NCBI GenBank assembly: GCA_027624315.1
Contig: JAQBXX010000003.1
Coordinates: 11,800 to 75,799, forward strand
Reading direction: 5' to 3'
Source of the DNA: Pseudomonadota bacterium
GTDB lineage: Bacteria > Pseudomonadota > Gammaproteobacteria > SURF-13
DNA: 64,000 bases
Shown here: in pieces, positions 4,396-28,020 of the stretch
Layout: each line of letters begins with the position of its first letter
How positions within the stretch are numbered: position 1 is the first letter of the stretch
Position numbers and translations under genes: made by a program
The notes under the pieces: generated by a model
What the model saw: only the letters and a program-made list of their open reading frames with translations
Told to the model about the DNA's origin: nothing
Database searches by the model: none

Positions 4396-4400
4396 GCACC

Positions 4401-5826: not shown

Positions 5827-5829
5827 GGG

Positions 5830-7785: not shown

Positions 7786-7795
7786 GAATATTCCC

Positions 7796-9313: not shown

Positions 9314-9326
9314 GGGCGCGCTAGCC

Positions 9327-10778
9327 ATGGATTTCACACTACCCAATTTCGCCCCCGCCATGCCCGAGATATTCGTGCTCAGCATGGCCTGCATCATACT
9401 GATCGTCGACCTGTTCCTGACCGAGCACACGCGCGTGGTGACCTATCTGTTGTCGCTGATCACGTTGATAGCGGCGGCTGTGCTCACTGCCAACCTCGAC
9501 ACCGCCGAACCGGTGCTCACCTTCAGCGGCACCTTCATCAACGACAGCATGGCGGTGGTGCTGAAGCTGTTTATCTACCTCATCACCTTCGTGGTACTCG
9601 TCTACTCGCACAACTACCTGCGTACGCGCCAGCTTTACCAGGGCGAATATTTCGTGCTGATCCTGTTCGCGGTGCTCGGCATGATGGTGCTGGTCTCGGC
9701 ACACAGCCTGCTCACGATCTACCTCGGGCTGGAGCTGCTCTCACTGTCGCTCTACACCCTGGTGGCGCTACGACGCGACTCGGTCAGCGCCTCCGAGGCC
9801 GCGATGAAGTATTTCGTGCTGGGCGCGCTCGCCTCCGGCATTCTACTGTACGGGCTCTCCATGCTGTACGGCGTCACTGGCAGTCTCGACATCGGAAACA
9901 TCAGCAGCCATATCAGCACGAGCATCGCCACCCCCGCTGAGCACTCCATCGTTCTGGTTTTTGCCCTAGTCTTCGTGCTGGTCGGAATTTTATTCAAGCT
10001 CGGTGCAGTGCCGTTTCACATGTGGGTGCCGGACGTTTACCACGGCGCGCCAACCTCCGTGACGCTGTTCATCGGCACCGCGCCCAAGATCGCGGCATTC
10101 GCGATGCTGATGCGGCTGCTGGTAGACGGACTTGGTGACCTGCACTCGCAGTGGCAGACCATGATCATCATCGTCGCCGTACTGTCGATGGCGGCGGGAA
10201 ATATCATTGCGATTGCGCAAACCAATCTCAAGCGCATGCTGGCGTACTCCACCATCGCGCACGTGGGATTTTTGCTGCTCGGCATCTTGAGCGGTACACT
10301 CAACGGCTACGCGTCCTCCATGTTTTACGTCATCGTTTACGCGCTCATGAGCCTGGGCGGCTTCGGCATGATTATCCTGTTGTCGCGCGCGGGTTTCGAG
10401 GCTGACCGGCTGGAGGATTTCAAGGGGCTCAACCAGCGCAGCCCATGGTTCGCCTTCATGATGCTGATCCTGATGTTTTCCATGGCGGGCGTGCCACCCA
10501 CGGTGGGCTTTTACGCCAAGCTTGCGGTGCTGCAGGCGGTGGTCGAGGCCGACCTGGTATGGCTTGCGGTGCTGGCAGTGGTCTTCTCGGTGATCGGCGC
10601 GTACTATTATCTGCGCATCATCAAGCTGATGTATTTTGACCAGCCCGATGATGTGGCGCCGCTCGCGGCAGGCTTCGACATGCGCCTCGCCATGAGTGCC
10701 AACGGCCTTGCGATACTCGGCCTCGGGCTTTTCCCCAGCGGATTATTGACTCTATGCGCCAGGGCGCTTAACCCCTGA
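9327..10778 (+). CDS. nuoN: NADH-quinone oxidoreductase subunit N
   Basis: Track ORF 9177..10778 carries a 50-aa extension overlapping nuoM; first ATG after nuoM stop at 9327 gives [16 protein letters not shown]..., a typical NuoN N-terminus. Confidence 0.88.
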
Positions 10779-10779
10779 T

Positions 10780-11106
10780 ATGGCCTCCACTTCCGCCCTC
10801 GTCTGGATGCTGCTTGTGCTCGCGCTGATCGCCGCCAATCTTCCGTGGCTCAGCGAGCGCGTGTTCTTTGTGAAGCAGCCCAAGGGTGGCGTCAAGCGCG
10901 CTTGGGTGCGGCTGCTGGAGTGGCTTACGCTGTATTTTGTGATGGGCTTTATCGCCATGGGGCTGGAGCAGAAGCTCACCGGCGATTACCACCTGAAACA
11001 CTGGGAGTTTTACGCCATCAACTTGTTCATATTCATGGTGTTTGCGCTGCCGGGATTCATCTATCGTTACGACCTCAAGACGCACTTCGACAAACACGGT
11101 AGTTAA
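10780..11106 (+). CDS. DUF2818-family small membrane protein (commonly follows nuoN)
   Basis: 108 aa, 3 predicted TM segments, starts 2 nt after nuoN stop; sequence resembles the DUF2818 proteins encoded after nuoN in proteobacteria. Confidence 0.7.
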   Translation: MASTSALVWMLLVLALIAANLPWLSERVFFVKQPKGGVKRAWVRLLEWLTLYFVMGFIAMGLEQKLTGDYHLKHWEFYAINLFIFMVFALPGFIYRYDLKTHFDKHGS

Positions 11107-11163
11107 ACCGCGCGCAAGGATGCACCGTCATTCTTCAAGTACGGTGTAGGTGCTTGTAAAATG

Positions 11164-11229
11164 ACGCAAAGCAAAAATCACACTTTTTGCTTTGCGTGTT
11201 GGGAAAGGCCAAGGATGGCCTTTCCCAAC
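11164..11229. terminator. Two consecutive perfect hairpins between convergent DUF2818 gene and efp; likely bidirectional terminators
   Basis: acgcaaagcaaaaa/tttttgctttgcgt (14 bp stem, 11164-11197) then gttgggaaaggcc/ggcctttcccaac (13 bp stem, 11198-11229); sits between convergent genes. Confidence 0.55.
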
Positions 11230-11235
11230 ATACTA

Positions 11236-11796
11236 TCAGGCGCGCTCGACATACTCCCCGCTGCCGGTATTGATCTTGATAAGGTCGCCGACGCCCACAA
11301 ACGGCGGCACCAGAACGCTGATCCCCGTCTCCAGTTTCGCGTGCTTGTAGGAGCTGTTCGCGCTCTGGCCTTTCAGCACGGCATCGGCATCGACTACCTT
11401 GAGCACCACATTAGGCGGTAGCTCGATGAAAATCAGCCGCTCATTGTACAATTTGGCCTGCACCTCTGTATTGGGTAGCAGATAGCCGATCTGCTGCTCA
11501 AGAAACTCGCGCGGCACGCTGATCTGCTCGTAGGTCTCGCTGTCCATGAATACCAGCGCATCGCCTTCCTCATAGGAATAGGTCAGCTTGCGTGTTTCCA
11601 GCTCGATTGCGTCCACCTTGTCCTCGGCGCGAAAACGTTCGTTAAGCTTGGTACCGGCCTCGATGTCCTTCATCTCGACCTGAGCGAAGGCCCCGCCCTT
11701 GCCGGGTTTGACGTGCTCGACCTTGGATACGCGCCAGAGCCGACCCTGGTAGTCGATCAGGGCATTGGGGCGCAGGGAGGAGGCGGCGATTTTCAT
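11236..11796 (-). CDS. efp: Elongation factor P family protein (KPGKGG loop, lysine at the modification position)
   Basis: 186 aa; KPGKGGAFAQVEMKD matches the EF-P KPGKGQAF loop; three-domain length. Confidence 0.8.
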   Translation of the reverse strand: MKIAASSLRPNALIDYQGRLWRVSKVEHVKPGKGGAFAQVEMKDIEAGTKLNERFRAEDKVDAIELETRKLTYSYEEGDALVFMDSETYEQISVPREFLEQQIGYLLPNTEVQAKLYNERLIFIELPPNVVLKVVDADAVLKGQSANSSYKHAKLETGISVLVPPFVGVGDLIKINTGSGEYVERA

Positions 11797-11885
11797 GCTT
11801 TGATTCTCGTCATTAGAATGCGATGATTATAAAGTGCAGCTTTTCAGAATGACATGATCTGTTCAAAGAACTTACCCCACGTTCC

Positions 11886-13736
11886 ATGACACACGTACCT
11901 TCTGCCTTCGATCCGAAAGCCTTTCTCAAGACCGTGACTGGCAGGCCGGGCATCTACCGCATGCTCGATGCTGTGGGCGGGGTGCTGTATGTGGGCAAGG
12001 CGCGCAATCTGAAGCAGCGCCTGGCCAGTTATTTCCAGCAGCGATCCGCCACGCCGCATGCCGGCAAGACACAGGTCCTGGTCGAGCAGGTGCGCAATAT
12101 CGAGGTCACCGTTACGCATACGGAGACTGAAGCACTGATTCTGGAATGCACGCTCATCAAGCAGCTCAAGCCGCGCTACAACATTTTATTGCGCGATGAC
12201 AAAAGCTATCCCTACATTTTCCTGTCGAGCAAACACGAATTTCCGCGCCTCGCGCTGCACCGTGGTGCTAAGCGCGCAACGGGACGCTACTTCGGTCCGT
12301 ACCCGGGCGCGCTCGCGGCGCGCGAGAGCCTGCATCTGCTGCAAAAGCTGTTTCAGGTACGCCAGTGCGAGGACAGCTTCTTTCGCAACCGTTCGCGCCC
12401 CTGCCTGCAGCACCAGATCAAGCGCTGTACCGCGCCGTGCGTGGGAGCCGTGAGCCAGGAGCGCTACGCGGAAGACGTGCGCCATACCGTGATGTTTCTG
12501 GAAGGCAAGAACCCCGAGGTGATCGGGGAACTGGCGGCGCGCATGGACCAGGCGGCGGAGCAGCGGGATTTTGAGCAGGCGGCACATTATCGCGACCAGA
12601 TTGCGAGCCTGCGCCAGGTGCAGGAGCATCAATACGTCAGCGGGGAGAAGGGCGATCTCGACGTGATCGCGGCGCTGGTGCAAAACGGTGTGGGCTGCGT
12701 GGAGGTATTTTTTATCCGCGCCGGACGCGCGCTCGGCAACAAGGCCTTTTTCCCGCGCCTGCCGGAAGGCGCCAGCGCAAGCGAGATGCTGGGGGCCTTC
12801 ATGCCGCAGTATTATCTCGGCAGCCACACGGGTGACGAACAGCAGATCATCCCCGCCGCAATGATTACCCAACCGCCGTTGGAAGACGCAGACTTGCTGG
12901 AGCAGGCGTTGAGCAGCAAGGCCGGGCGCCGCGTGACTATTTCAAGCAGCGTGCGCGGCGCGCGTGCGCGCTGGCTGCAACTCGCGCAGACCAACGCGGA
13001 GCATGCGCTGGCGCAACAACTGGCCAGCAAAGGCCATATGAACGAACGCTTCGATGCCTTGCGCGCAGCATTGCAGCTTGACCACACGCCCGGCCGCATC
13101 GAGTGTTTCGACATCAGCCACACCCAGGGCGAGGCCACCGTGGGGTCGTGCGTGGTATTTGACAGCCAGGGCCCGCTTAAATCCGCCTACCGGCGCTTCA
13201 ACATCGAAGGCACACCACCGGGCGACGACTACGCCGCCATGCAGCAGGCCTTACTGCGCCGCTATACCAGACTCATGCAGGGCGACGGCATTCTCCCCAA
13301 CATCCTGTTCATCGACGGCGGGAGAGGGCAGGTGGCCGAGGCTGTGCGTGTGCTGGAGGAGTTGCAGATCACCGGCGTGACGATAGTCGGTATCGCCAAG
13401 GGCGAGGGGCGCAAGGCGGGGCTGGAATCCCTCATCGTGGCACACCGGCGCACACCACTTCGGCTACCACCCGATGCGCCTGCCCTGCACCTGATTCAGC
13501 AACTGCGCGATGAGGCGCACCGCTTTGCCATCACCGGACACCGCAAACAGCGGGGCAGGGCGCGCACCACTTCCACGCTGGAGGGCATCCCCGGCATCGG
13601 GCCGCGCCGCCGCCGCGAGCTGCTCAGCCAGTTCGGGGGCTTGCAGGGCGTATCACGTGCCGGGGTGGAAGACCTCAGCCACGTGCCGGGCATCAGCAAA
13701 CAGCTTGCGCAGAAGATATACGATGTGTTTCATTAG
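11886..13736 (+). CDS. uvrC: Excinuclease ABC subunit C
   Basis: 616 aa; GIY-YIG N-terminus (GIYRMLDAVGGVLYVGKARNLKQRL), UvrC C-terminal HhH region; conserved uvrC-pgsA-tRNA synteny. Confidence 0.95.
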   Translation: MTHVPSAFDPKAFLKTVTGRPGIYRMLDAVGGVLYVGKARNLKQRLASYFQQRSATPHAGKTQVLVEQVRNIEVTVTHTETEALILECTLIKQLKPRYNILLRDDKSYPYIFLSSKHEFPRLALHRGAKRATGRYFGPYPGALAARESLHLLQKLFQVRQCEDSFFRNRSRPCLQHQIKRCTAPCVGAVSQERYAEDVRHTVMFLEGKNPEVIGELAARMDQAAEQRDFEQAAHYRDQIASLRQVQEHQYVSGEKGDLDVIAALVQNGVGCVEVFFIRAGRALGNKAFFPRLPEGASASEMLGAFMPQYYLGSHTGDEQQIIPAAMITQPPLEDADLLEQALSSKAGRRVTISSSVRGARARWLQLAQTNAEHALAQQLASKGHMNERFDALRAALQLDHTPGRIECFDISHTQGEATVGSCVVFDSQGPLKSAYRRFNIEGTPPGDDYAAMQQALLRRYTRLMQGDGILPNILFIDGGRGQVAEAVRVLEELQITGVTIVGIAKGEGRKAGLESLIVAHRRTPLRLPPDAPALHLIQQLRDEAHRFAITGHRKQRGRARTTSTLEGIPGIGPRRRRELLSQFGGLQGVSRAGVEDLSHVPGISKQLAQKIYDVFH

Positions 13737-13745
13737 GATATATCC

Positions 13746-14297
13746 ATGAATCTGCCCAATATCCTGACTTTTGTCCGCATCGGCCTGATCCCGGTGTTCG
13801 TGCTTGCCTTCTATCTCCCGTTCAGCTGGGCGCATGTACTTACCGCCGCAATCTTCGCCCTGGCGGCCCTGACCGACATACTGGACGGCTACCTCGCGCG
13901 CCGGCTCGGGCAGGTGTCCGCCCTCGGCACCTTCCTCGACCCGGTAGCGGACAAGCTGATGGTCGCGGTTGCCCTCGTACTGCTGGTGCAGGCCGACCCC
14001 ACACCCTGGCTCGCCATCCCGGCCGCCGTGATTATCGGGCGCGAGATCACCATTTCCGCATTGCGCGAATGGATGGCGGAGATCGGCCAACGCACCTCGG
14101 TCGCGGTGTCGGTGATAGGGAAATTCAAGACCGTCGCCCAGATGCTGGCGCTGCTGTTCCTGCTCTACCGCGAGCCGGTGGTGGGGCTTCCCGTCTACAG
14201 TATAGGCCTGGTGTTACTGTACTTGGCGGCGGGGCTTACGTTGTGGTCCATGGTGGTCTATTTACGTGCCGCCTGGCGCAGCCTGAGGGCGGGCTGA
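13746..14297 (+). CDS. pgsA: CDP-diacylglycerol--glycerol-3-phosphate 3-phosphatidyltransferase
   Basis: 183 aa membrane protein with CDP-alcohol phosphatidyltransferase motif (DGYLAR...G...D...ADK); follows uvrC as in E. coli. Confidence 0.92.
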   Translation: MNLPNILTFVRIGLIPVFVLAFYLPFSWAHVLTAAIFALAALTDILDGYLARRLGQVSALGTFLDPVADKLMVAVALVLLVQADPTPWLAIPAAVIIGREITISALREWMAEIGQRTSVAVSVIGKFKTVAQMLALLFLLYREPVVGLPVYSIGLVLLYLAAGLTLWSMVVYLRAAWRSLRAG

Positions 14298-14354
14298 CAG
14301 CCGCTTTACCTTGACAGCCGGGCCACCGCGGTTACAATAGCGAGCTTCATTTGT

Positions 14355-14429
14355 GCGGGAATAGCTCAGTGGTAGAGCACAACCTTGCCAAGGTTGGGGT
14401 CGCGAGTTCGAATCTCGTTTCCCGCTCCA
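14355..14429 (+). tRNA. glyW: tRNA-Gly (anticodon GCC)
   Basis: GCGGGAATAGCTCAGTGGTAGAGCA...CTTGCCAAGG...GGTTCGAATCT...CCCGCTCCA; cloverleaf by eye; anticodon loop ctGCCaa. Confidence 0.93.
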
Positions 14430-14448
14430 TAATTCAATGATTCAGCAC

Positions 14449-14522
14449 GGCTGGGTGGCAGAGTGGTCATGCAGCGGCCTGCAAAGCCGTGTACGCCGGT
14501 TCGATTCCGACCTCAGCCTCCA
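14449..14522 (+). tRNA. cysT: tRNA-Cys (anticodon GCA)
   Basis: GGCTGGGTGGCAGAGTGGTCATGCA...CCTGCAAAG...GGTTCGATTCCG...CAGCCTCCA; anticodon loop ctGCAaa. Confidence 0.92.
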
Positions 14523-14550
14523 TTATCCCTCGCTATTACCCTCTCATAAT

Positions 14551-14637
14551 GCCCGGGTGGCGGAATTGGTAGACGCAAGGGACTTAAAATCCCTCGGCCT
14601 CACGGCTGTGCCGGTTCGATTCCGGCCCCGGGCACCA
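14551..14637 (+). tRNA. leuZ: tRNA-Leu (anticodon TAA), long variable arm
   Basis: GCCCGGGTGGCGGAATTGGTAGACGC...CTTAAAATC... variable arm ...GGTTCGATTCCGGCCCCGGGCACCA; 87 nt. Confidence 0.92.
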
Positions 14638-14662
14638 TATAAAATCAATAAGATAAAAGCTA

Positions 14663-14697
14663 TACTTGAAGTAACTTCAAGATGACTTTTTTTGCCC
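14663..14697 (+). terminator. Rho-independent terminator after tRNA cluster
   Basis: cttgaagt/acttcaag hairpin followed by atgacttttttt. Confidence 0.6.
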
Positions 14698-14847
14698 GTA
14701 GGGAAAACGTGCCAGATTAATCACGTTGCCACCGCGCTCCGATTCAATGCGTGCCGACGCTACAGCCAAATATTCAGTGGTTAATCCATGTTCTGGCGCA
14801 GTCCGTTGGCCATCCGGCTCTCGCTCGCTAGCGGCCGATGGTCGCGC

Positions 14848-14880
14848 TTGACATACCATTAATGGTATAGGCACAATATG
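14848..14880 (+). promoter_or_regulatory. Putative promoter with perfect 16-bp palindromic operator for the downstream toxin-antitoxin fusion gene
   Basis: TTGACA (14848-14853) then ATACCATTAATGGTAT perfect palindrome (14853-14868), a further ATGGTAT half-site and a CACAAT -10-like hexamer ending about 6 nt before the ATG at 14883 (possible leaderless mRNA). Confidence 0.45.
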
Positions 14881-14882
14881 GT

Positions 14883-15428
14883 ATGTGGCGCATCGAGGAG
14901 CACCGTCGAGTCGACAAACAGCTCTCGGGAGCCGTCCCGCCCGAAATACTCAAGCGCTACGAGAAATGGAAAGACATTGCGAGTCTCTCGGGCCCGCCCG
15001 GTCTGCGCACGATCAAGGGGTTTCACGATGAAGCTCTATCGGGCGAGTGGAAGGGCCATCGATCTTCCCGACTGGGGCTTCAGTGGCGAGTGATCTATCG
15101 AGTCGTCGCGGACGTACTGTCGATCCAGGTCATTCAAGTCACCCCACACGATTACGGAGGCCCTGATATGAAAGAGTTTCGTCCTGCCAAGAAGCGAGTT
15201 GAGGTTTCTGTGGGAGAGTCTGTCCGCATCCTTCGCGAGCTCCAGGAACTCAGCCAACGCCAGCTCTCCGAACTCACGGGTATTCCTCAGGCTACTATCT
15301 CCGCCATCGAGAATGGCCGGATCAATCTGGGCGTCGAGCGGGCCAAGGTTCTAGCTCGTGCACTCAAGTGTCACCCGGCGGTGCTCGTTTTCCCGGGCTG
15401 GGAGGTTCCACTTGAATCTGCGGCATAA
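14883..15428 (+). CDS. RelE/ParE(HigB-like) toxin fused in frame to an XRE-family HTH antitoxin (single 181-aa ORF; internal SD+ATG at 15168)
   Basis: N-terminal ~94 aa ends ...GEWKGHRSSRLGLQWRVIYRVVADVLSIQVIQVTPHDY (RelE/ParE fold signature); C-terminal half MKEFRPAKKRVEVSVGESVRILRELQELSQRQLSELTGIPQATISAIENGRINLGVERAKVLARAL is a Cro/C1-type HTH; no stop between them (gat tac GGA GGc cct gat ATG). Confidence 0.7.
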   Translation: MWRIEEHRRVDKQLSGAVPPEILKRYEKWKDIASLSGPPGLRTIKGFHDEALSGEWKGHRSSRLGLQWRVIYRVVADVLSIQVIQVTPHDYGGPDMKEFRPAKKRVEVSVGESVRILRELQELSQRQLSELTGIPQATISAIENGRINLGVERAKVLARALKCHPAVLVFPGWEVPLESAA

Positions 15429-15497
15429 CCCAACACTCAAGCGGACACCAAAATCCCCCGATAAAGTTGACACCCGGTGCTGATTGGAGAATAAACA

Positions 15498-15831
15498 CAT
15501 GATTCAGGAAACTATTGGCAGAATCGAAGACAAAATTAAAAAAACCAAATTGATGCAGGGAGAAAACAAGGATGAGCTGCTGCATCTGGTGGCAGAGCTA
15601 AAGAGTGAAGTAATGGCACTTTCCAAAACACATCCGGAACAAGCCGAAAGCATTGCCGGCTTTGCAGATATTTCCGCACATGAAGCCGTGAGGGATGTGA
15701 GAAACCCAGACCTGTCCAAGCTGTCAACCGAAGGATTGCTGGCCTCCGTGCGCGAATTCGAGCAATCTCACCCGCGACTGGTTAGCATTGTTAATGTCAT
15801 CAGCAACACCCTGTCAAATATGGGAATTTAA
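15498..15831 (+). CDS. Small coiled-coil protein, probably DUF4404 family
   Basis: ATG at 15498 preceded by GGAG 9 nt upstream; C-terminus ...EFEQSHPRLVSIVNVISNTLSNMGI resembles the conserved DUF4404 C-terminal motif; lower GC than flanks. Confidence 0.55.
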
Positions 15832-15919
15832 GACTAGGAAATCCACCAGCAATCACTGCGATGGTGAAGGCGGAGGGAAGAGAATGATGGGTTTGCGAAC
15901 GGTGCGGGCTTGTGGGATG

Positions 15920-16126
15920 TCAAATGTAAGGCCTGACCCTAGTGTTTCTGACCCTAGTGTTTCTAGTAGTAGTGTTTCTAGTTTCTAGTGTTTCTAGTAG
16001 TGTTTCTAGTAGTGTTTCTAGTGTTTCTAGTGTTTCACGTAGTGTTTCACGCGGGATGGTTTTGCATTCGTGTTGCAGCAGTGAGTCTGCCTCCTTGCCC
16101 AGGAGTTGGCTGATGCGGTCGATCAT
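15920..16126 (-). CDS. Hypothetical 68-aa ORF whose C-terminal two thirds are encoded by the tandem repeat (…RETLRETLETLETLLETLLETLETRNTTTRNT…)
   Basis: ATG at 16126 preceded by GAGG 7 nt upstream; non-repeat N-terminus MIDRISQLLGKEADSLLQHECKTIP; may be spurious. Confidence 0.25.
   Translation of the reverse strand: MIDRISQLLGKEADSLLQHECKTIPRETLRETLETLETLLETLLETLETRNTTTRNTRVRNTRVRPYI
15934..16050. repeat. Degenerate tandem repeat array, ~10 units of (TAG)n-TGTTTC / GACCCTAGTGTTTC (7-15 nt units)
   Basis: Direct reading: tgaccctagtgtttc x2, tagtagtagtgtttc, tagtttc, tagtgtttc, tagtagtgtttc x2, tagtgtttc x2, acgtagtgtttc. Confidence 0.9.
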
Positions 16127-16274
16127 GCGGACACCTCGTTTATCTGGACGGGCTGCGGTAATGCGGGTCTATCCAGCAGCGCGGCGGTTTTTCATCGGAA
16201 GGGAATACGAGCTCAGTCTTGTCAAACGATGCAGGCTCCGGCATTTCCTCGCCGACATGGCTGCTTAGGTGGGT

Positions 16275-16466
16275 TTATTTTGCGCAGCTACGGTCAGAAT
16301 CTTCCGTGAAAGCCTGCGTGCCTATGTAGTAGGTGTTTTGGTAAGTCTGATACTGCTGTAAACCCCACAGGCCGGCAGCAATCACCAATGCGAGGAATAG
16401 TGCCCGGTAGTTCCGCGCGAGGGAGGAGAGGCTGGACGTCCGGGCGAAGGTCTGGGTGCTGAACAT
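16275..16466 (-). CDS. Hypothetical small membrane protein (63 aa, one TM helix)
   Basis: ATG at 16466 with GAGGTG SD 4-5 nt upstream; hydrophobic segment ALFLALVIAAGLWGL; immediately downstream of srkA. Confidence 0.4.
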   Translation of the reverse strand: MFSTQTFARTSSLSSLARNYRALFLALVIAAGLWGLQQYQTYQNTYYIGTQAFTEDSDRSCAK

Positions 16467-16549
16467 AATTCACCTCATGCAGGGCTCGTCTCGCCATACT
16501 ACCCCCCATCCGTGAGCCGCTACAAGCATCTAAGCATTGGGCCCTTTGA

Positions 16550-17542
16550 TCACGCGGGCGCGAGAGGCGGCTCATCCATCAGCGCCACCTGCTCGCGCAG
16601 TTCGAGGATGCGATCCTGCCAGTAGCGCTGGGTGTTGAACCAGGGGAAGGCGGCGGGGAAGGCGGGGTCGTCCCAGCGCCGGGCCAGCCACGCCGAGTAG
16701 TGAATCAGACGCAACGTGCGTAGCGCCTCCACCAGATGCAGTTCACGCATATCGAAATCGCAGAAATCCTCGTAGCCGGCGAGCACGTCGCCGAGCTGGC
16801 GCTGCATCGAGGAATGATCGCCTGAAAGCAGCATCCACAAATCCTGTACGGCGGGCCCCATGCGGCTGTCATCGAAGTCGACGAAATGCGGGCCGTCATC
16901 GGCCCACAGTACGTTGCCGGCGTAGCAGTCGCCGTGCAGGCGCAATATGCGCACCTTACCGGCGCGCGCATAACAACTGCGCACGCCGTCCAGCGCCTGC
17001 GCCACGACGCTCTGCCAGGCATCCATCAGGTCCGCAGGAATGAAGCCGTGCGCGAGCAGGTAATCGCGCGGTTCTTCGCCGAAGCTTGCGATGTCCAGTG
17101 TGGGCCGGGCAAGAAATGGCCGCACCGCGCCGACCGCGTGGATGCGCCCGATAAAGCGGCCCATCCATTCAAGAGTGGTGCGATCATCGAACTCGGGCGC
17201 ACGACCGCTTTGCCGCGGATATACGGCGAAACGAAAGGCCCCGAAGCTGTGTAGCGTCTGTTCACCAGCGAGAACCAGCGGGGCCACGACCGGTATCTCG
17301 TGCTCGACGAGCTCATGCACGAACGCATGCTCTTCCAGAATGGCGGCGTCAGACCAGCGTCCGGGACGATAAAACTTCGCCACCATCGGCGGGCCTTCAT
17401 CCATGCCGGCTTGATAAACGCGGTTTTCGTAACTGTTGAGGGCGAGCAGGCGTCCGTCACCCCTCAATCCCACACTCTCCAGCGCATCGAGCACGCAATC
17501 CGGCGTGAGCCCCGCATAGGGCGTGGTTTCGGTGATATCCAA
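16550..17542 (-). CDS. srkA: Stress response Ser/Thr protein kinase SrkA (YihE/RdoA family)
   Basis: 330 aa; strong similarity to E. coli YihE along whole length (LNSYENRVYQ, FYRPGRWS, LRLHGDCYAGNVLW, GPAVQDLWMLL, PWFNTQRYW); TTG start 10 nt after higA stop. Confidence 0.88.
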   Translation of the reverse strand: MDITETTPYAGLTPDCVLDALESVGLRGDGRLLALNSYENRVYQAGMDEGPPMVAKFYRPGRWSDAAILEEHAFVHELVEHEIPVVAPLVLAGEQTLHSFGAFRFAVYPRQSGRAPEFDDRTTLEWMGRFIGRIHAVGAVRPFLARPTLDIASFGEEPRDYLLAHGFIPADLMDAWQSVVAQALDGVRSCYARAGKVRILRLHGDCYAGNVLWADDGPHFVDFDDSRMGPAVQDLWMLLSGDHSSMQRQLGDVLAGYEDFCDFDMRELHLVEALRTLRLIHYSAWLARRWDDPAFPAAFPWFNTQRYWQDRILELREQVALMDEPPLAPA

Positions 17543-17552
17543 GGGCAGCCTG

Positions 17553-17927
17553 CTAGGCCGCGCGCCGTAACGGATATTTTTGTATCAGTACGTCGGCCGG
17601 AATATTCAATCCTTCCGACAGGCGGCGCACCATCTCCAAGGTAAGCGGGCGTGTACGGCCCAGTATCTCTGCAACCCGTCCACGGCTACCGATGCAGGGT
17701 TCCAGGTCTTTACGAGTCAATCCTCGTGTTTCCATCACATAGTGCAGGAAGTCAATCGGATCAGGGTCTGGGATGGGGTAGTGCCTGGCCTCGTAATCGG
17801 CAATGAGCAGCGTCAGCACGTCCAGCCGGTCGGCTTGGGGAGTGCCGGCCTTTGCCGCCCACAGCGCCTCGGCCTCTTTGAGAGCGGCCTTATAGTCACG
17901 TTTACTCTTGATCGGTTTCAGTTCCAT
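17553..17927 (-). CDS. higA: HigA-family antitoxin (C-terminal HTH)
   Basis: 124 aa; C-terminal HTH GLTRKDLEPCIGSRGRVAEILGRTRPLTLEMVRRLSEGLNIPADVLI typical of HigA; directly downstream of higB. Confidence 0.8.
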   Translation of the reverse strand: MELKPIKSKRDYKAALKEAEALWAAKAGTPQADRLDVLTLLIADYEARHYPIPDPDPIDFLHYVMETRGLTRKDLEPCIGSRGRVAEILGRTRPLTLEMVRRLSEGLNIPADVLIQKYPLRRAA

Positions 17928-17942
17928 TTTGTTTGCACCTCG

Positions 17943-18236
17943 TTAAATCGTGCTCGCATCTATCCTTGCGTATTGCTGGTGTGTGCCGACAAAGCGGATA
18001 AACATCAGGCCACGGTTGTAATGCACGGCCACCACCAGCCGGTAGTCATTGCCCTTAATGTTGAATACCACGCGGTTATCGGCCAGGAAGCTTGCATTGC
18101 GATAGGCGGCCTTAATGTCAGCCGGGCTTTTCCAATGGGCGCGACTCGCATCGGCATACCAGCTACGCAAAGGGATTTCCGCCTGTGGGTGCTTTTCCCA
18201 AAACTCGCGCAACCTCGACAGGGCAATAATCCGCAT
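17943..18236 (-). CDS. higB: HigB-family mRNA interferase toxin
   Basis: 97 aa; similarity to E. coli HigB (…FNIKGNDYRLVVAVHYNRGLMFIRFVGTHQQY); toxin gene upstream of antitoxin as in higBA. Confidence 0.8.
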   Translation of the reverse strand: MRIIALSRLREFWEKHPQAEIPLRSWYADASRAHWKSPADIKAAYRNASFLADNRVVFNIKGNDYRLVVAVHYNRGLMFIRFVGTHQQYARIDASTI

Positions 18237-18307
18237 GCATCAATTTACCATGTTCCCACTATGGGAGCAACACGCCAGACGAACATGATGGACGTACACC
18301 GTATATT

Positions 18308-18335
18308 ACTTAACATAATATACATTATACGAAGT
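18308..18335 (-). other. dif: dif-like chromosome dimer resolution site (XerC/XerD target)
   Basis: Reverse complement ACTTCGTATAA-TGTATA-TTATGTTAAGT vs E. coli dif GGTGCGCATAA-TGTATA-TTATGTTAAAT: central 6/6, XerD arm 10/11, XerC arm 7/11; in AT-rich spacer at the point where gene orientation converges. Confidence 0.7.
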
Positions 18336-18367
18336 ATTATTAATAAGTAAGTTAATAAATACAATAA

Positions 18368-19144
18368 CTAGGGAGATACTTTAAAAAGTCTTATAAAGTT
18401 ACTGGAGGTGGCCTCTTCGACTGCCGACAGAGGGATATTACGCACCTCGGCAATGCGCTCGGCGACGTGGCGCACATAGGCAGGCTGGTTGGTCTTGCCC
18501 CGTTTCGGAACCGGGGCGAGATATGGGGAATCGGTTTCGATCAACAGGCGGTCAAGCGGCATCCGCGCGGCGACGTCGCGCAGGGTGTGGGCACTGTTGA
18601 AGGTGACAATGCCGGAAAACGAGATGTAGAAATTGAGCGCCAGCGCCGCCTGGGCCATTTCCCAGTCTTCGGTAAAGCAGTGCATCACGCCGCCTGCCCG
18701 CTCGGCACCCCCCTCGCGCAGGATACGCACGGTGTCTGCCTTAGCCTCGCGGCTATGCACAATGAGGGGCTTGCCGACGCGCAGCGCAGCGCGGATATGA
18801 GTGCGGAAGCGCTCCTGCTGCCAGCCAACGTCACCTTTGCAATGGTAGTAGTCGAGGCCGGTCTCGCCGATGGCGACGATCTTGGGATGCTGCGCCAGCG
18901 CAACCAGCTCATCCACTGTCGGTTCGCGGCACTCGCGTTCATCGGGGTGCACGCCTACGGAGGCATAGATGAAGGGGTATTGCTCGGCGATAGCGAGCAC
19001 CGCGGGAAAGGTTTCGAGATTTACGCAGACACTCAGCAGTTGCTCCACGCCCTGCTGCCGTGCGGTCTGGAGGACATGGTCGAGATCCCCTCCCAGCGCG
19101 TCAAAATCGAGCCGGTCGAGGTGGCAGTGCGAATCAATCAGCAT
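18368..19144 (-). CDS. tatD: TatD-family metal-dependent DNase (YcfH)
   Basis: 258 aa; MLIDSHCHLD N-terminus and conserved TatD motifs; synteny holB-pilZ-tatD. Confidence 0.9.
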   Translation of the reverse strand: MLIDSHCHLDRLDFDALGGDLDHVLQTARQQGVEQLLSVCVNLETFPAVLAIAEQYPFIYASVGVHPDERECREPTVDELVALAQHPKIVAIGETGLDYYHCKGDVGWQQERFRTHIRAALRVGKPLIVHSREAKADTVRILREGGAERAGGVMHCFTEDWEMAQAALALNFYISFSGIVTFNSAHTLRDVAARMPLDRLLIETDSPYLAPVPKRGKTNQPAYVRHVAERIAEVRNIPLSAVEEATSSNFIRLFKVSP

Positions 19145-19153
19145 ACCCTTGTG

Positions 19154-19528
19154 CTACAGGGTGTTTGTTGCACGCTCGGCCTGCAACAGCCCGGCGAGAT
19201 AGCCCTCAATCTTGCTGCGCGTGGAGCCGCCGTCTATCTCGCTGAACTGCACGCCGATGCCGGCGGGGCGATTTCCCTGCGCTCCCTTGGGAGTGAGCCA
19301 GACGATGCGACCGGCGACAGGCAGTTTTTCTGTCTCATCCATCAGCGTGAGCAGAATAAACACCTCGTCACCCAGCTGGTAGGCCTTGGCGCTGGGAATG
19401 AACATCCCGCCGTTCTTGATAAACGGCATGTAAGCGGCGTATAGCGCGCCCTTGTCCTTGAGTGACAGCGACATGATGCCCTGTCGTCCCGTCGCAGGTG
19501 CGGGTTTGGGTGCTTCAGCCATGTGCAA
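19154..19528 (-). CDS. pilZ: Type IV pilus assembly PilZ-domain protein
   Basis: ~120 aa; LSLKDKGALYAAYMPFIKNGGMFIP matches Pseudomonas PilZ; conserved tmk-holB-pilZ-tatD order. Confidence 0.85.
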   Translation of the reverse strand: MHMAEAPKPAPATGRQGIMSLSLKDKGALYAAYMPFIKNGGMFIPSAKAYQLGDEVFILLTLMDETEKLPVAGRIVWLTPKGAQGNRPAGIGVQFSEIDGGSTRSKIEGYLAGLLQAERATNTL

Positions 19529-19584
19529 TACTCTACGCTTATAAGCTTAACAAACTATAACAAGAAATCGTGCCAATACACTAA

Positions 19585-20622
19585 TTATGCAGGCTGGGAT
19601 GAAACCGCGGCAGTGTCCACCGCCCAGCCGATCAGGGCATCCTCCAGCAGGGATTGAGCATTTACCTGGGTCGACAGCAGCCGTAGCGCATCCTGCGTCC
19701 GCTCCAGATGGCGGTATAGCACGCTCAACTCAGTCCGTTGGGAAATGCGCTGGAGCTGGACATCCAGATCGCAATTTTTAAGGCGCGGGTGATGCGAGGC
19801 TGATTTCAAGCGAATCATGTCTGCGATAAATCCGAACAGCCACTCGACACAATCCGTGGCGCCCCACTCCACCCACGCCGCTGCGCGGCTGACCGGATCG
19901 GCCAGCCCGCGTTGCAGGCCGTCCAGGTCTTCGAGCATGGCGGCGCGATGTAACGGCATGCCGTTGTGCGCGAGCGTGATTGCCTTGAGCGGTGCACCAT
20001 CGGCAAGCGCGAGGAGTTGCGCCGCATCGTGCGTAATGCCTAGACGTTCACTCAACCACGGCAGCGCGAGATCAGCCGGCGGTAGTGTGAAATTCATCCG
20101 CTGACACCGGCTGCGTACTGTGGCCGGCAGCGCGGCGGGGCGGCTCGTGATCAGCATCAACAACGTATGTGCCGACGGCTCTTCAAGTGTTTTGAGCAGG
20201 GCGTTGGCAGCGGAGGCATTCATGCGGTCGGCGGGCCACAGAGCGGCGATTTTATATCCCTCGCCGTGACTCTTGAAGGCGAGAGACGCGTTCAGTTCAC
20301 GTATCTGGTCAATGAGGATGGACTTGCCCTCCTCCACGGGCGTGATCTTCTGGTAGTCGGGATGCGTGCCCGCCCGAAATAGCAGGCAGGGGCGGCAAGC
20401 CCGGCACGCCTGACCATCGGGGGCAGGCTGCGCGCACAACAGCGCCTGCGCGAAAGCGGCGGCAAAGTGCTGCTTGCCCACTCCGCGCATGCCGCATAAC
20501 AAAAGTGCGTGCGGTAGCCGCCCGCTTGCGCGCCACGCAAGCATCTCCTGCCAGCGCGCGTGCTGCCAGGGCAGGATTTGCGCAGCATTGCCGGGGGTTA
20601 CGCCGGAGATTGCATCAGTCAC
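19585..20622 (-). CDS. holB: DNA polymerase III subunit delta'
   Basis: AAA+ clamp-loader motifs (HALLLCGMRGVGK, LKTLEEP); likely GTG start at 20622 overlapping tmk stop (GTGACTGA); longer track ORF starts at 20688. Confidence 0.85.
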   Translation of the reverse strand: MTDAISGVTPGNAAQILPWQHARWQEMLAWRASGRLPHALLLCGMRGVGKQHFAAAFAQALLCAQPAPDGQACRACRPCLLFRAGTHPDYQKITPVEEGKSILIDQIRELNASLAFKSHGEGYKIAALWPADRMNASAANALLKTLEEPSAHTLLMLITSRPAALPATVRSRCQRMNFTLPPADLALPWLSERLGITHDAAQLLALADGAPLKAITLAHNGMPLHRAAMLEDLDGLQRGLADPVSRAAAWVEWGATDCVEWLFGFIADMIRLKSASHHPRLKNCDLDVQLQRISQRTELSVLYRHLERTQDALRLLSTQVNAQSLLEDALIGWAVDTAAVSSQPA

Positions 20623-21241
20623 GCGTGATCTCGTCGAGCGCCTGACCGATCTGCGCCTGCACGGTGGACAACTCCTGCGCGGCATCAATCACGCGGTAGC
20701 GCCCGGGGTGTAGCGCGGCCTGCCGCAAATAGTTGTCACGCACACGCTCGAAAAATGCGAGTTGTTCGCTCTCGAAGCGGTCATGCGTTGTGCTGCGCCG
20801 CCCGGCACGCTCCAGTCCGAGCGCCGGGGGCAGATCAAGCAACAACGTGAGGTCAGGCCGCAGTGGGCCTTGCAGCCACTCTTCGAGTTGCGCGATGCGC
20901 TGTTGCGCGATGCCGCGCCCGCCGCCCTGGTAGGCGTAAGTCGCTTCAGTGAAGCGGTCGCACAGTACCCACTGGCCTGCGGCGAGTGCGGGGTTGATCA
21001 CGCGCGCGAGGTGTTCAGCGCGCGCGGCAAACATCAACAACAGTTCAGTATCCACGGCCATACCGTCATTGCGATGACTGAGCAACACGTCACGGATTTG
21101 CTCGCCGAGTAGCGTGCCGCCGGGTTCGCGCGTCACCACGATGTTCTTTTTTGCATTCAGCAGATGTTGCTTGATGAAGGCGATATTGGTGCTTTTGCCC
21201 GCGCCCTCAATACCCTCCATGGTGATGAAACGTGCCGTCAT
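20615..21241 (-). CDS. tmk: Thymidylate kinase
   Basis: 208 aa; FITMEGIEGAGKST P-loop, DRF motif. Confidence 0.93.
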   Translation of the reverse strand: MTARFITMEGIEGAGKSTNIAFIKQHLLNAKKNIVVTREPGGTLLGEQIRDVLLSHRNDGMAVDTELLLMFAARAEHLARVINPALAAGQWVLCDRFTEATYAYQGGGRGIAQQRIAQLEEWLQGPLRPDLTLLLDLPPALGLERAGRRSTTHDRFESEQLAFFERVRDNYLRQAALHPGRYRVIDAAQELSTVQAQIGQALDEITRD

Positions 21242-22278
21242 TATTGTGCTGCCTCCGTCGCAGGGTAATTACCGCCGAGTTGATGTTTGACCACGGCGCG
21301 ATTGTGCTGCTCCAGCGTCGCGGAAAACACGTGGCCGCCGTCGCCGCGCGCGACAAAGTACAGCGCGTCACCGGGCGCCGGATGCAGCACGGCATGAATG
21401 GCGTCTGCGCCGGGCATGGCGATGGGGGTGGGCGGCAGTCCGGTGTGCATGTAGGTATTGTAAGGTGTATCGGACTCAAGATCACGGCGGCGCAGGTTGC
21501 CGTCAAACGACGGCCCCATACCGTAGATTACCGTCGGGTCGGTTTGCAACGGCATGCCTATCCGCAAGCGCCGCACAAACACGCCCGCAATCAGCGGCCG
21601 CTCACTCGCAAGCCCGGTTTCTTTTTCTACGATGGAGGCGAGTGTCAACGCTTCATCGGGCGTGCGTAGCGGCAACCCCGTGCTGCGATTCTGCCACTCC
21701 TGCTGTAGGCGCTGATCCATGGCGCGGTAGGCGCGCTGCAGGAATGCAACGTCGGTAGTGCCCTTGGGGAAATGATAGGTGTCGGGATAAAAACGCCCTT
21801 CCGGATGCTGCCCCGCAAAACCCAGCTTCACCATGATCTCGCGATCGTCTAGGGCGGACAGCGTGTGGCTCAATTTTTCATGCCGCTCTATCGCATCCAT
21901 CAACTGACGGAAGCTCCAGCCTTCTACCAGCGTGAGCGCATACTCGATTACCTTGTCGCTGGCTAACTGATCCAGCAGTTGTGACGGTGTGGTGCCGGGC
22001 GCCAGTGTGTACTCGCCTGCGCGGACGTTACGGCCCTTGTTCTGTAGATACGAAAGCCAGACGAGGTATGAGGCGTGAGACAAGACGCCACGTTGCTGCA
22101 AATCGTGTGCGATCTTTTTCAGCGTCATGCCGGGAGCGACCTCATAGCTCATGTCGCTGCCCCCTGTATTGAGAGGTGTCGTGGTGAAACGGTAATATTC
22201 CACGCTGGCCCATAACGCTGAAAAAAGCAGAATGGCGAACAACGCCGCACCGGGTGATTTCAACAGGTAGCTTAGCAT
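21241..22278 (-). CDS. mltG: Endolytic murein transglycosylase MltG (YceG)
   Basis: 345 aa, N-terminal TM, YceG-like domain; synteny pabC-mltG-tmk. Confidence 0.88.
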   Translation of the reverse strand: MLSYLLKSPGAALFAILLFSALWASVEYYRFTTTPLNTGGSDMSYEVAPGMTLKKIAHDLQQRGVLSHASYLVWLSYLQNKGRNVRAGEYTLAPGTTPSQLLDQLASDKVIEYALTLVEGWSFRQLMDAIERHEKLSHTLSALDDREIMVKLGFAGQHPEGRFYPDTYHFPKGTTDVAFLQRAYRAMDQRLQQEWQNRSTGLPLRTPDEALTLASIVEKETGLASERPLIAGVFVRRLRIGMPLQTDPTVIYGMGPSFDGNLRRRDLESDTPYNTYMHTGLPPTPIAMPGADAIHAVLHPAPGDALYFVARGDGGHVFSATLEQHNRAVVKHQLGGNYPATEAAQ

Positions 22279-23087
22279 GGGATCATAAGGTCATCGACGT
22301 AAACTGCGATGCGACGCGTGAGCAGCCCAGGTGAAAGTTGAACGCCGTCGAGTTCACGCACCGGCCATACGCCGATCACACTATTGCATAAAAATACTTC
22401 ATCCGCATTCTGCATATCGCTTAATGTGAGGTCAGTGACCGCGCACTCCACTCCAGGCTGCTCCATTATCAGGCCGCGCACTATGCCCGCAATGCCGCAG
22501 CGCGATACGTCCGGTGTATATAATTTTCCGTCACGCACCACAAACACATTGCTCATCGTGCCCTCGATGACGCAATCCGCGGCATCCAGCATCAAACCCT
22601 CGGGAATATCGGCGTCGCTCCACTCATTGCGTGCGAGCACCTGTTCGAGGCGATTCAGGTGCTTGATGCCGGCCAGCACGGGATTGAGGCCGAGACGCGT
22701 GGCACAGACGCGCACGCGCACGCCATGTTGCGCAAAATCTTCGGGCCACGAGGCCCACGGGTACAGCGCCAGTATACGGGTTGCGGGCACGGGCGTGGTC
22801 ATGCGATAGCCGCGCGCGCCTGCTCCGCGCGTGATGATGATCTTGAGCACGGCTTGCGCTGCGCTGCTTGAAGTACAGACCTGACGTGCCTCGGCTTCGA
22901 GCATAGCCGTGTCGGGTGGCGTGATGCCAAGGCGCGCACAGCCCGTGGACAAGCGCTGCATGTGCCTGTCCCACAACAACGGCACGCCTGCGCGTACCGC
23001 CAGCGTCTCAAACACGCCGTCGCCGTAATGCAGGCCGCGATCCTGCGCGCTGATCTGTGTTCCCGCTGCGCCGTTGATGAGTATCAT
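22272..23087 (-). CDS. pabC: Aminodeoxychorismate lyase (class IV aminotransferase fold)
   Basis: Real start MILINGAAG... at 23087 (ATGA overlap with pabB stop); track ORF has spurious 138-aa Arg-rich extension. Confidence 0.85.
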   Translation of the reverse strand: MILINGAAGTQISAQDRGLHYGDGVFETLAVRAGVPLLWDRHMQRLSTGCARLGITPPDTAMLEAEARQVCTSSSAAQAVLKIIITRGAGARGYRMTTPVPATRILALYPWASWPEDFAQHGVRVRVCATRLGLNPVLAGIKHLNRLEQVLARNEWSDADIPEGLMLDAADCVIEGTMSNVFVVRDGKLYTPDVSRCGIAGIVRGLIMEQPGVECAVTDLTLSDMQNADEVFLCNSVIGVWPVRELDGVQLSPGLLTRRIAVYVDDLMIPC

Positions 23088-24445
23088 GGCGCGCTGCCCA
23101 GCGCCCCCAGCAGGCCGCGCGCCTTGGCGCGCGTTTCTTCCAGTTCGCGTTGCGGATTGGAATCGGCGACGATACCGGCGCCGGCGCGCAGGCTGATGTC
23201 GTCGCCCTCTTTCACCAGGGTGCGTATCAATATATTGAAATCCATGTCGCCATCGTGGTTGAGATACCCCATGGCACCGGTGTACGCGCCGCGCGGTTCG
23301 CGCTCCAGCTCGGCGATGATCTCCATGCAGCGCACCTTGGGGCAGCCGGTGATGGTGCCACCGGGAAACACCGCGCGCAACACCTCGCCCGGCGTGGTGC
23401 CCGGGCGCAGTTCGCCATGCACGCCGGAGACGATATGATGCACGTGCGCGTAGCTTTCGACGCTCATCAAGTCGTCCACGCGCACGCTGCCGGGCACGCA
23501 CATGCGCCCCAGATCATTGCGTTCGAGATCAATCAGCATGACGTGCTCGGCACGCTCTTTCGGGTGCGCGAGCAATGCCGCGGCATCGGGCCCGTCGTTG
23601 CTGTGGTTTTCGCGCCGTGGCCGCGTACCGGCGATAGGACGGGTTGCGACCACGCCGCCGCGCACCAGCACCAGGCGTTCCGGTGACGAGCTGATGATGG
23701 CGCTCGCTCCATGGCACGCAAGACCGGCGAAGGGTGCCGGATTATGTTCGCGCAGGCGCCGGTAAATCTGGGCGGCGTCGATGGGCGCCCGAAAGCGGCC
23801 GCGCCATAGCCGCGACAGATTCACCTGAAACACGTCGCCCTCGCGGATATAGCGCAGAATGCGTTCAACACCGTCGAGAAACTCCCGCGGCGCATCTTCC
23901 TGCAACGTGATGCCGGGCCAGGTCACCTGCGCCGCACTCGCGTCTTTTTCAAGGGTGGCGATATCCTCGCGCATGCGCACAAGCAAATCCTCGCTGCCCG
24001 GCTCGGCGATCAGGTGCATGCCTTGGGTGGTGTGATCGCGGACGATCGCGGCCGGGATGCGTGTGGCAAACGCTACCGGTAATCCGGATCGTATCTCAGG
24101 CAAACACAGGCTTGGCTCGATCTGCGCGGCGAGTTCGTAGCCGAGATAGACAAACCAGCCGCCGCGGAATGGCAGCGCCGCTGCGGCGGCGGCGCGGGGT
24201 TGCTGCTCGGCTGACCACCAGCGGTCCAGTTGCGCGAGGAAATCCGTGCCCTCTACAGCCGGGCCGCGCAGCGTGGTGAGATCGGCAAGCTCCAGCGTGG
24301 CGCCAGGGAAGGCGAACAGGATGTCATAACGCGCCGCCGCTGTGCCGTGCACCACGCTTTCCAGCAAATACGGATAGCGCGCGGGGTTGAGGGCGTGCAG
24401 CGCCAGCAGGTCGCAATCGCTGTCCGGTGCGCAGTGATCGGCCAT
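23084..24445 (-). CDS. pabB: Aminodeoxychorismate synthase component I
   Basis: 453 aa; chorismate-binding enzyme motifs (IAGTRPRR, LIDLERNDLGR, PGGTITGCPKVRCMEII, GAYTGAMGY); coupled to pabC. Confidence 0.88.
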   Translation of the reverse strand: MADHCAPDSDCDLLALHALNPARYPYLLESVVHGTAAARYDILFAFPGATLELADLTTLRGPAVEGTDFLAQLDRWWSAEQQPRAAAAAALPFRGGWFVYLGYELAAQIEPSLCLPEIRSGLPVAFATRIPAAIVRDHTTQGMHLIAEPGSEDLLVRMREDIATLEKDASAAQVTWPGITLQEDAPREFLDGVERILRYIREGDVFQVNLSRLWRGRFRAPIDAAQIYRRLREHNPAPFAGLACHGASAIISSSPERLVLVRGGVVATRPIAGTRPRRENHSNDGPDAAALLAHPKERAEHVMLIDLERNDLGRMCVPGSVRVDDLMSVESYAHVHHIVSGVHGELRPGTTPGEVLRAVFPGGTITGCPKVRCMEIIAELEREPRGAYTGAMGYLNHDGDMDFNILIRTLVKEGDDISLRAGAGIVADSNPQRELEETRAKARGLLGALGSAP

Positions 24446-24447
24446 CG

Positions 24448-24557
24448 TTACTCAGGAGACACAAAGTATGGATACACGCTGCCCAAGTGTCTCCTGAGTA
24501 AAAACAGTATTAACCCTACCCCCACCCTGTCCCGCCCCCTAAACAGGGGGCGGGGAC
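24448..24557 (+). repeat. Double-hairpin intergenic repeat element, family 1, copy A
   Basis: 15-bp perfect stem ttactcaggagacac/gtgtctcctgagtaa (loop 24 nt) followed by GC-rich hairpin gtcccgccccct/agggggcggggac; near-identical inverted copy at 30676-30786. Confidence 0.85.
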
Positions 24558-24614
24558 GTGTCGGAGAGTGCATCCTTGATAATAAACTCATGCGTAACCA
24601 GCCGCTGACGGAGT

Positions 24615-25868: not shown

Positions 25869-25940
25869 CCATGTGTGTCAAAGATATAAAAACAAAGGCC
25901 GCCCATAAGCATGGAGCGGCCTCATAGCTGGACGGGCGTC

Positions 25941-26183: not shown

Positions 26184-26317
26184 GACGGATACATCCTCCC
26201 AACATTGATGAAATTGCTTGAACGGCTGGCGCTATTTTATTGGAAACCGGGTGATTAGGCCACAATCACCGCCAACGTAATGAAACTAAAAGAAAAAGAA
26301 TCCCGGGCGGCGGGCCT

Positions 26318-28008: not shown

Positions 28009-28020
28009 AGTGTTCAGGCA

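Follow-up and report, generated by a model that had tools for sequence, protein, structure and literature searches.

A probable patchwork of toxin-antitoxin cassettes, a resident kinase gene and gene debris beside dif, at the likely replication terminus of an uncultured gammaproteobacterium

The DNA described here lies in a 64-kb stretch of contig JAQBXX010000003.1 (the window), part of a metagenome-assembled genome (MAG) of an uncultured gammaproteobacterium, and occupies positions 14638-18367, between a tRNA-Leu gene and tatD. It contains a chromosomal dif site, the kinase gene srkA, two toxin-antitoxin (TA) cassettes and gene remnants. The window is approximately 60% GC. Its plus strand carries, in order, the nuo operon, efp (on the opposite strand), uvrC and pgsA, then tRNA-Gly(gcc) (14355-14429), tRNA-Cys(gca) (14449-14522) and tRNA-Leu(taa) (14551-14637), all on the plus strand and identified with both ARAGORN and Rfam. 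From the right, the minus strand carries fabD...fabF, pabB, pabC, yceG, tmk, holB, pilZ and tatD, ending at 18368. tatD (ycfH; 18368-19144, minus strand; PF01026) is the last gene of this fab-pabBC-yceG-tmk-holB-pilZ-tatD block, and the synteny is seen in L001, L085 and L088 (L numbers designate comparison loci and P numbers homologous proteins).

The original prediction for this stretch, made from the letters of the window, was of a single island inserted into an E. coli-like neighbourhood. Its inventory proved correct: the tRNAs, toxin/XRE fusion, DUF4404 gene, tandem repeat, srkA, higBA and dif are all present. The patchy GC content that it described by eye is also found on measurement (0.48 at 15400-16200, 0.64 in srkA and 0.455 at 18000-18400), and no tyrosine or serine integrase-like open reading frame (ORF) occurs in 14638-18367, as it had stated. 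The neighbourhood itself is another matter. The tRNA order downstream of uvrC-pgsA is the glyW-cysT-leuZ order of E. coli; in E. coli K-12, however, uvrC-pgsA-glyW-cysT-leuZ (1.99 Mb) and tmk-holB-ycfH (1.16 Mb) are separated by 835 kb, whereas in the window the two blocks converge. This does not bear out an E. coli-like setting as the target of an insertion.

The dif site is found at 18308-18335 on the minus strand. This 28-mer, ACTTCGTATAATGTATATTATGTTAAGT, has the 11-6-11 layout of XerC arm, spacer and XerD arm (ACTTCGTATAA-TGTATA-TTATGTTAAGT), fits the proteobacterial 28-bp consensus and is oriented with the XerD arm towards higB. It is the one match in the window, with 0 expected from shuffled sequence, and it remains the sole Xer-type site on both strands of the 64 kb even with 10 of 28 mismatches tolerated. 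Relative to E. coli dif, 5 of 28 positions differ and the spacer TGTATA is identical. The site resembles E. coli/Neisseria-type dif in its length and layout and in occurring once only, where replichore-oriented genes and GGGNAGGG motifs converge; it differs in its XerC arm ACTTCGTATAA and in an XerD arm ending AAGT. Its position is conserved. In the sister lineage L093/L094 (92-93% nucleotide identity), a dif site with the sequence AGTTCGTATAATGTATATTATGTTAAAT adjoins tatD in the same AT-rich spacer, and in L085 and the more distant relative L086 (TatD 82% identical) dif is placed after tatD-cusF; no dif was found near tatD in L088.

The surroundings of the site are polarized. The long genes of the window converge on dif, and each of the five GGGNAGGG motifs (plus strand, 5821 and 13553; minus strand, 24514, 56273 and 57769) is aimed at it. 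Within the window, GC skew is -0.033 to the right of dif and flat (-0.003) to the left. The predicted dif is borne out by the uniqueness of the 28-mer, its conservation beside tatD and the uniform motif polarity, and we take the site to be genuine. Judged from 64 kb, it is likely, though not proven, to mark the replication terminus, where it would serve chromosome dimer resolution with FtsK guided by the GGGNAGGG motifs.

In L085 (Logan contig SRR4188484_2531; TatD 82% identical), a PM2/corticovirus-like prophage (L085:11372-20774) lies directly after dif, encoding the N and C domains of the PM2 coat protein P2 (PF18628, PF25513), a Rep_1 initiator, an SLT lysin and many small ORFs. The XerD arm beside the prophage is TTATGTAAAGT, versus TTATGTTAAAT at the uninterrupted L086 site. 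PM2-like prophages at dif have been described (PMC1950889), and the L085 prophage is a probable integrative mobile element that exploits Xer (IMEX) at the tatD-proximal dif. The dif beside tatD would therefore be a used integration site in this group; at the level of the group, the earlier description of dif as an integration hotspot is upheld by this Xer-type element.

Between dif and srkA lies a 761-bp higBA cassette (17542-18302, minus strand), which in alignment with L093 replaces a 65-bp spacer. Homology with L093 is interrupted from approximately 6 bp beyond the XerD arm up to the start codon of srkA. The segment contains only higB, higA and their upstream region and is missing in both L093 and L094; it is the one part of the stretch to display the presence/absence difference at dif that is expected of an IMEX. 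HigB (97 aa; 17943-18236, minus strand; HigB_toxin, PF09907, 1.3e-30) is similar to the HigB chains in PDB 5ycl and 5ifg (E 1.7e-8), and its 124-aa HigA-like partner (17553-17927, minus strand), which has no Pfam match, is similar to the HigA chains in those two complexes (E 0.003). The PF09907 toxin gene is followed, after a 15-bp intergenic gap, by the helix-turn-helix (HTH) antitoxin gene, whose stop codon is approximately 10 bp from the srkA start. On these grounds the cassette is assigned to the E. coli-type HigBA modules. It shares with HigBA of E. coli K-12/Shigella (YgjN/YgjM; PDB 5ifg, 5ycl) a toxin-first operon, a PF09907 toxin and a partner matching the same complexes; it differs in its distant sequence, in a HigA that has no Pfam match and in its location adjoining dif, upstream of srkA.

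The upstream part of the cassette (18237-18302, minus strand) is the higBA promoter region and includes a 7-bp inverted repeat, CATGTTC...GAACATG, around the near-palindrome TCCCATAGTGGGA. Both are candidate HigA operators, less than 70 bp from dif. HigB would be a ribosome-dependent mRNA interferase restrained by HigA, which would in turn repress the promoter beside dif. Because the cassette replaced the native upstream region and start codon of srkA, this gene is now probably co-transcribed with higBA, and the higBA promoter probably drives srkA too. Homologues of the HigB family were found on 69 viral contigs and on plasmids, and with members on plasmids and prophages this kind of cassette is mobile in a general sense. 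The plasmid HigB genes are distant (best 65%, from Sulfuricella), none was found among deposited phage genome records, and no near-identical higBA copy was present in the phage and plasmid records searched. HigB proteins 98% identical to that of the window are present in other Gammaproteobacteria MAGs.

srkA (16550-17542, minus strand) encodes a YihE-type Ser/Thr kinase (NF008738, 505 bits), with a TTG start codon in the window and ATG in L093. The gene order in L093/L094 is pilZ-tatD-dif-65 bp-srkA, and since both carry srkA at this distance from dif, the gene is a resident neighbour of the site rather than island cargo. This arrangement contradicts the prediction of one 3.7-kb island, as only the 761-bp higBA segment differs there. 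The comparison of relatives that had been proposed as a check thus gave a divided answer: both TA modules vary among close relatives and are therefore accessory, and srkA, identically placed, is resident.

SrkA is 72-82% identical to proteins of Burkholderiales and Nitrosomonadales (L005-L084), including 79% to that of Nitrosovibrio Nv17, of which the Nuo subunits are just 50-81% identical to those of the window; for TatD and PgsA, the named relatives are among Gammaproteobacteria, Chromatiales and Sulfuriflexus. In the 80 GTDB species with SrkA of 72-82% identity, no tatD, holB, pgsA or fbaB was found near srkA, and nuo is next to it in Nitrosovibrio Nv17 only. srkA may perhaps be an older horizontal acquisition beside dif.

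On the opposite side of this stretch, the boundary is set by a relative, L091 (88-92% nucleotide identity), which has the same nuo-efp-uvrC-pgsA-tRNA block and remains homologous for 148 bp beyond tRNA-Leu, to approximately 14785. This conserved segment (14638-14785, plus strand, from the alignment with L091) consists of the tRNA-Leu trailer, with a terminator hairpin at 14665-14681 detected by a terminator scan, and approximately 90 bp more. Past 14785, L091 carries bolA and then a DUF4202/DUF3050 gene where the window has a TA fusion. Variable DNA accordingly begins near 14786 rather than where the tRNA gene finishes. A search for a direct repeat of the tRNA 3' end gave none, the sole match being the T-arm similarity between tRNA-Cys and tRNA-Leu. 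These two results speak against the tRNA 3' end as an integration point, which had been part of the original proposal.

The approximately 90 bp beyond the terminator (14696-14785) are conserved with L091 despite different flanking genes and have neither an Rfam match nor a convincing ORF; the Rfam scan of 14200-18500 returned nothing beyond the three tRNAs. The trailer of E. coli leuZ is the small RNA 3'ETS-leuZ. Two further differences from L091 lie upstream: a DUF2818 ORF after nuoN (window 10780-11106) is missing there (approximately 400 bp absent) and present in L095, and L091 has approximately 150 extra bp between tRNA-Cys and tRNA-Leu.

The first gene of the variable DNA (14883-15428, plus strand; Pfam and NCBIfam) encodes a 181-aa protein in which a RelE/HigB-1-type toxin is fused to an XRE antitoxin. 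The N-terminus is RelE/StbE-like (TIGR02385, 28.6 bits against a cut-off of 27.9) and the C-terminus is HTH_3 (54.8 bits), so that a BECR-fold toxin domain and an antitoxin DNA-binding domain share one frame. In split relatives the toxin ends ...TPHDYRRP* and the antitoxin ATG is in a different frame. Inserting A or C after TAC at 15155/15156 restores ...HDYRRP* with a TGA stop, and places the antitoxin ATG at 15168; the fusion thus arose by a 1-nt deletion at this point in a common 94-aa RelE/HigB-1 toxin gene. The 90%-identity cluster of the window fusion has 234 members, and all others listed (14 of 40 read) are 94-aa toxins, several of which are named HigB-1 or RelE/StbE by their sources. 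The 181-aa product is present in three assemblies of the same run, and the deletion is therefore no consensus error. The fusion is absent from the NCBI protein set, where the gene is presumably annotated as a pseudogene.

Fusion has occurred more than once in this family. Of the homologues aligned, the three closest fused ones, P0001, P0003 and P0004 (81-89% identity), change frame at three sites that differ from the one in the window, and P0002 (86%) is fused in frame; the 1-nt deletion of the window is private, and other clades are fused in frame or through loss of the stop codon. Across P0001-P0051, repeated fusions are seen via frameshifts, via stop-codon loss (RRPWM, RRPQM) and in in-frame clades (RRNEM); the ranking of this set favours fused matches, and the proportion fused is not an estimate of frequency. 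Fused TA genes of the RelE/ParE superfamily have already been catalogued (PMC11980606). The window gene is like them in joining a RelE/HigB-like N-terminus and an HTH antitoxin C-terminus in one polypeptide and in having many fused homologues, and unlike them in that a recent 1-nt deletion has affected a gene with a common 94-aa split form. A promoter-like TTGACA-18-CACAAT (14848-14877, plus strand; promoter scan) precedes the gene, and its spacer carries a perfect palindrome, ATACCATTAATGGTAT, which is likely the operator of an autoregulated gene. The fused protein would be a cis-neutralised or dead toxin still acting as a repressor, and the fusion may represent decay rather than a selected architecture. 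The surroundings of the fused homologues are TA-rich or mobile regions with no DUF4404 neighbour, and therefore the TA gene and the DUF4404 gene that follows it in the window are not a unit.

This DUF4404 gene (15499-15831, plus strand; PF14357; GC approximately 0.48) is called in L003 and encodes 110 aa from ATG, or 115 aa from a TTG at 15484. It is followed by a degenerate minisatellite (15933-16048; Tandem Repeats Finder and a repeat search) of approximately ten GAAACACTA units with spacers of 0-6 nt, and this in turn by fbaB', the remnant of a class I fructose-bisphosphate aldolase gene cut off after ~29 codons (16040-16126, minus strand; NF006706, E 4.7e-6), of which residues 4-29 align with positions 3-28 of the 350-position profile. 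Codons 26-29 (RETL) of the truncated gene lead in frame into the GAAACACTA repeat, and a 68-aa ORF (15920-16126, minus strand) extends from fbaB' into it. The minisatellite has grown from the stump of a deleted fbaB gene. Downstream of srkA, a 63-aa ORF with a hydrophobic stretch (16275-16466, minus strand) is called in L001 and L002 and has no family match.

Taken together, these features are probably best described as a patchwork junction at the terminus (dif, srkA, two TA cassettes and gene debris) and not as one mobile element. Two conserved gene blocks converge on dif; on the dif side, an E. coli-type higBA of 761 bp fills a former 65-bp dif-srkA spacer in this strain only, and on the tRNA side the 148 bp of homology give way to the fused TA cassette, the DUF4404 gene and the minisatellite on the fbaB stump. 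The cassettes would have come by ordinary recombination into a terminus tolerant of accessory DNA, with neither Xer nor integrase action. Several points weigh against this reading. The GC skew left of dif is flat rather than positive, and the polarity of the FtsK-orienting type that surrounds dif rests on just five GGGNAGGG motifs. The higBA difference relative to L093 may be a gain here or a loss there. The contiguity of the window, lastly, is contradicted by the ERZ23495043 assembly, as set out below. A single genomic island targeted to tRNA-Leu, spanning 14638-18367 and since deprived of its integrase, would account for the tRNA neighbour, the low and patchy GC and the TA genes; we rejected it as scarcely credible, given that L091 homology runs past the tRNA, the tRNA 3' end is not repeated, no integrase remnant exists, srkA is resident beside dif in L093/L094, and the parts are unlike one another in GC and in presence among relatives. 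Somewhat less remote, and still improbable, is a decayed IMEX, in which higBA would be the stabilising module left by an XerCD-integrated element of which all else, the distal dif-like site included, has been deleted. IMEXs carry no integrase of their own (PMC5357621), higBA starts approximately 6 bp from the XerD arm, the dif beside tatD has already been used for integration in the group (the L085 prophage), and the XerD arm of the window, TTATGTTAAGT, ends AAGT like the hybrid site by that prophage, the uninterrupted L093 and L086 sites (TTATGTTAAAT) ending AAAT; this last hint, however, is a single base. The Xer-dependent or decayed element of the original prediction also lacks a second site. 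No second dif-like site was found over the 64 kb when arms with up to 1 mismatch, 17-mers with up to 3 and 28-mers with up to 10 were sought; the best candidate within 14600-18300 (16458-16485) has 11 of 28 mismatches, a score reached by 22 of 200 shuffles and hence at chance level, and near 14640-14700, where a half-site had been suggested, the best has 14 mismatches. The ~10 bp between the higA stop and the srkA start leave no room for a site. Beyond the window, a scan that recovers dif in all control loci shows no dif-like site with 7 or fewer mismatches, in flanks of up to 4-5 kb, at any of 149 loci with HigB homologues (1.0 Mb in all: 384 kb from 80 metagenome loci and 622 kb from 69 viral contigs). 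The stretch also has no Rep, capsid, transfer or other element genes, its content being TA genes, DUF4404, srkA and remnants. Like CTXphi, TLC, the gonococcal island and the PM2-like prophages (PMC5357621, PMC1950889), it has accessory DNA abutting dif and no integrase; unlike them, it is devoid of a second dif-like site and of replication or morphogenesis genes. That an Xer-dependent event captured higBA on the XerD side of this chromosomal dif and left one recognisable site is very unlikely. If it did, an unrelated gammaproteobacterial lineage would have a chromosomal counterpart, with a single site, of IMEXs or of the Acinetobacter plasmid dif modules, some of which contain higBA and which have two inversely oriented pdif sites on Rep_3 plasmids (PMC13141974), and TA cassettes would be cargo moved between replicons by Xer recombination. 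A higBA pair adjoining an XerC/XerD site is common to those modules and the window; here, with both strands scanned, the site is single and chromosomal, and HigB homologues elsewhere are without sites.

A weightier alternative to the patchwork junction is that the junction itself is an assembly artefact, window positions 1-15857 and 15663 onwards not being neighbours and having been joined by collapse of a 195-bp repeat (15663-15857); to this we give a little less than even credence. According to blastn and base-by-base comparison, the repeat occurs in two contexts in an assembly of the same sample, A-C1-E and B-C2-D, where A and E are the left and right flanks of copy C1 (tRNA side and an HTH gene) and B and D those of copy C2 (ffh side and dif side). 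The window has the left context of one copy, and the allele (C at 15834) and right context of the other, C2; the E and B flanks are absent from it. In ERZ23495043, an independent assembly of the same run, scaffold_4436 corresponds to window 3746-15857 with 3 single-nucleotide polymorphisms (SNPs), has T for C at 15834 and diverges at 15858 into a truncated HTH gene (KDISLEQVGKHFGVSYATVSR). Scaffold_1515 (L001) is 100% identical to window 15663-27542, has the window's allele at 15834 and continues leftwards into an XRE fragment, a 5' fragment of tpiA, and then ffh, hemL, thiE and thiD. Breaks in the Logan contigs of SRR2027830 fall at 15692 and 15917. Dispersed repeats of this genome are shared by the ffh side, which therefore belongs to the same organism, and the GC skew there is +0.037, mirroring the -0.033 right of dif, against -0.003 on the tRNA side. 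ffh and proS are essential genes. Both are on the ffh side; if the two repeat copies were in direct order on a single chromosome, a genuine deletion that brought A and D together would be improbable, and the join would be a collapsed-repeat artefact and not a viable deletion. The repeat would then be the 3' part of an intact DUF4404 gene plus a stray copy of the same, the left neighbour of fbaB'-srkA-higBA-dif would be a junk region and then ffh, and there would be no island between tRNA-Leu and dif. Against this, the deposited 84,337-bp NCBI MAG contig has pgsA (MDA1107018.1) and srkA (MDA1107021.1) three proteins apart, with HigB (MDA1107023.1) and TatD (MDA1107024.1) on the same contig; the GGGNAGGG motifs of the tRNA side also point to dif; and strain variants exist in the sample (the A side has 2 SNPs over 12 kb), so that both arrangements could coexist. 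An exact 38-mer of the repeated segment had no match in JGI metagenomes. In our estimate it is quite conceivable, if just short of probable, that the real distance between tRNA-Leu and dif is not 3.7 kb. The descriptions of the individual parts hold whichever arrangement is true.

Left of the segment that it shares with the window, scaffold_1515 has a second junk region (L001:11881-12430), between ffh and the DUF4404 fragment. In it are a tpiA stump of ~24 initial codons, a 31-nt hairpin unit (aaaaataagggtagcgtcccctttatttt) present twice in tandem, an XRE gene truncated at its 5' end, and aacgaagggggtc in three copies. With tpiA as with fbaB', the stump of a glycolytic gene has short tandem repeats after it. 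The dispersed repeats, which are short and intergenic (60-145 bp, 94-99% identical), are found at 28017-28102, 28148-28207, 40994-41080, 41127-41192 and 44113-44257 of the window and at L001:13792-13931 and 16862-17006 on the ffh-side scaffold. They look like repetitive extragenic palindromic (REP) or miniature inverted-repeat transposable element (MITE) sequences, and scaffold_1515 ends at the copy near window 44132.

Every part of the stretch belongs to a familiar category, be it the dif site, the HigBA module, the frameshift-fused RelE/XRE gene or the gene remnants. Their biological weight is small. The locus adds one more case of TA cassettes and debris by dif at a terminus, and one more frameshift-fused RelE/XRE gene to a class already catalogued. 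For MAGs, it is a warning that joins should be checked before islands are called, as this join lies in a 195-bp repeat that a second assembly of these reads resolves differently. For the uncultured lineage, the conserved placement of dif beside tatD, where one relative has a PM2-like prophage, provides a usable marker of the terminus.

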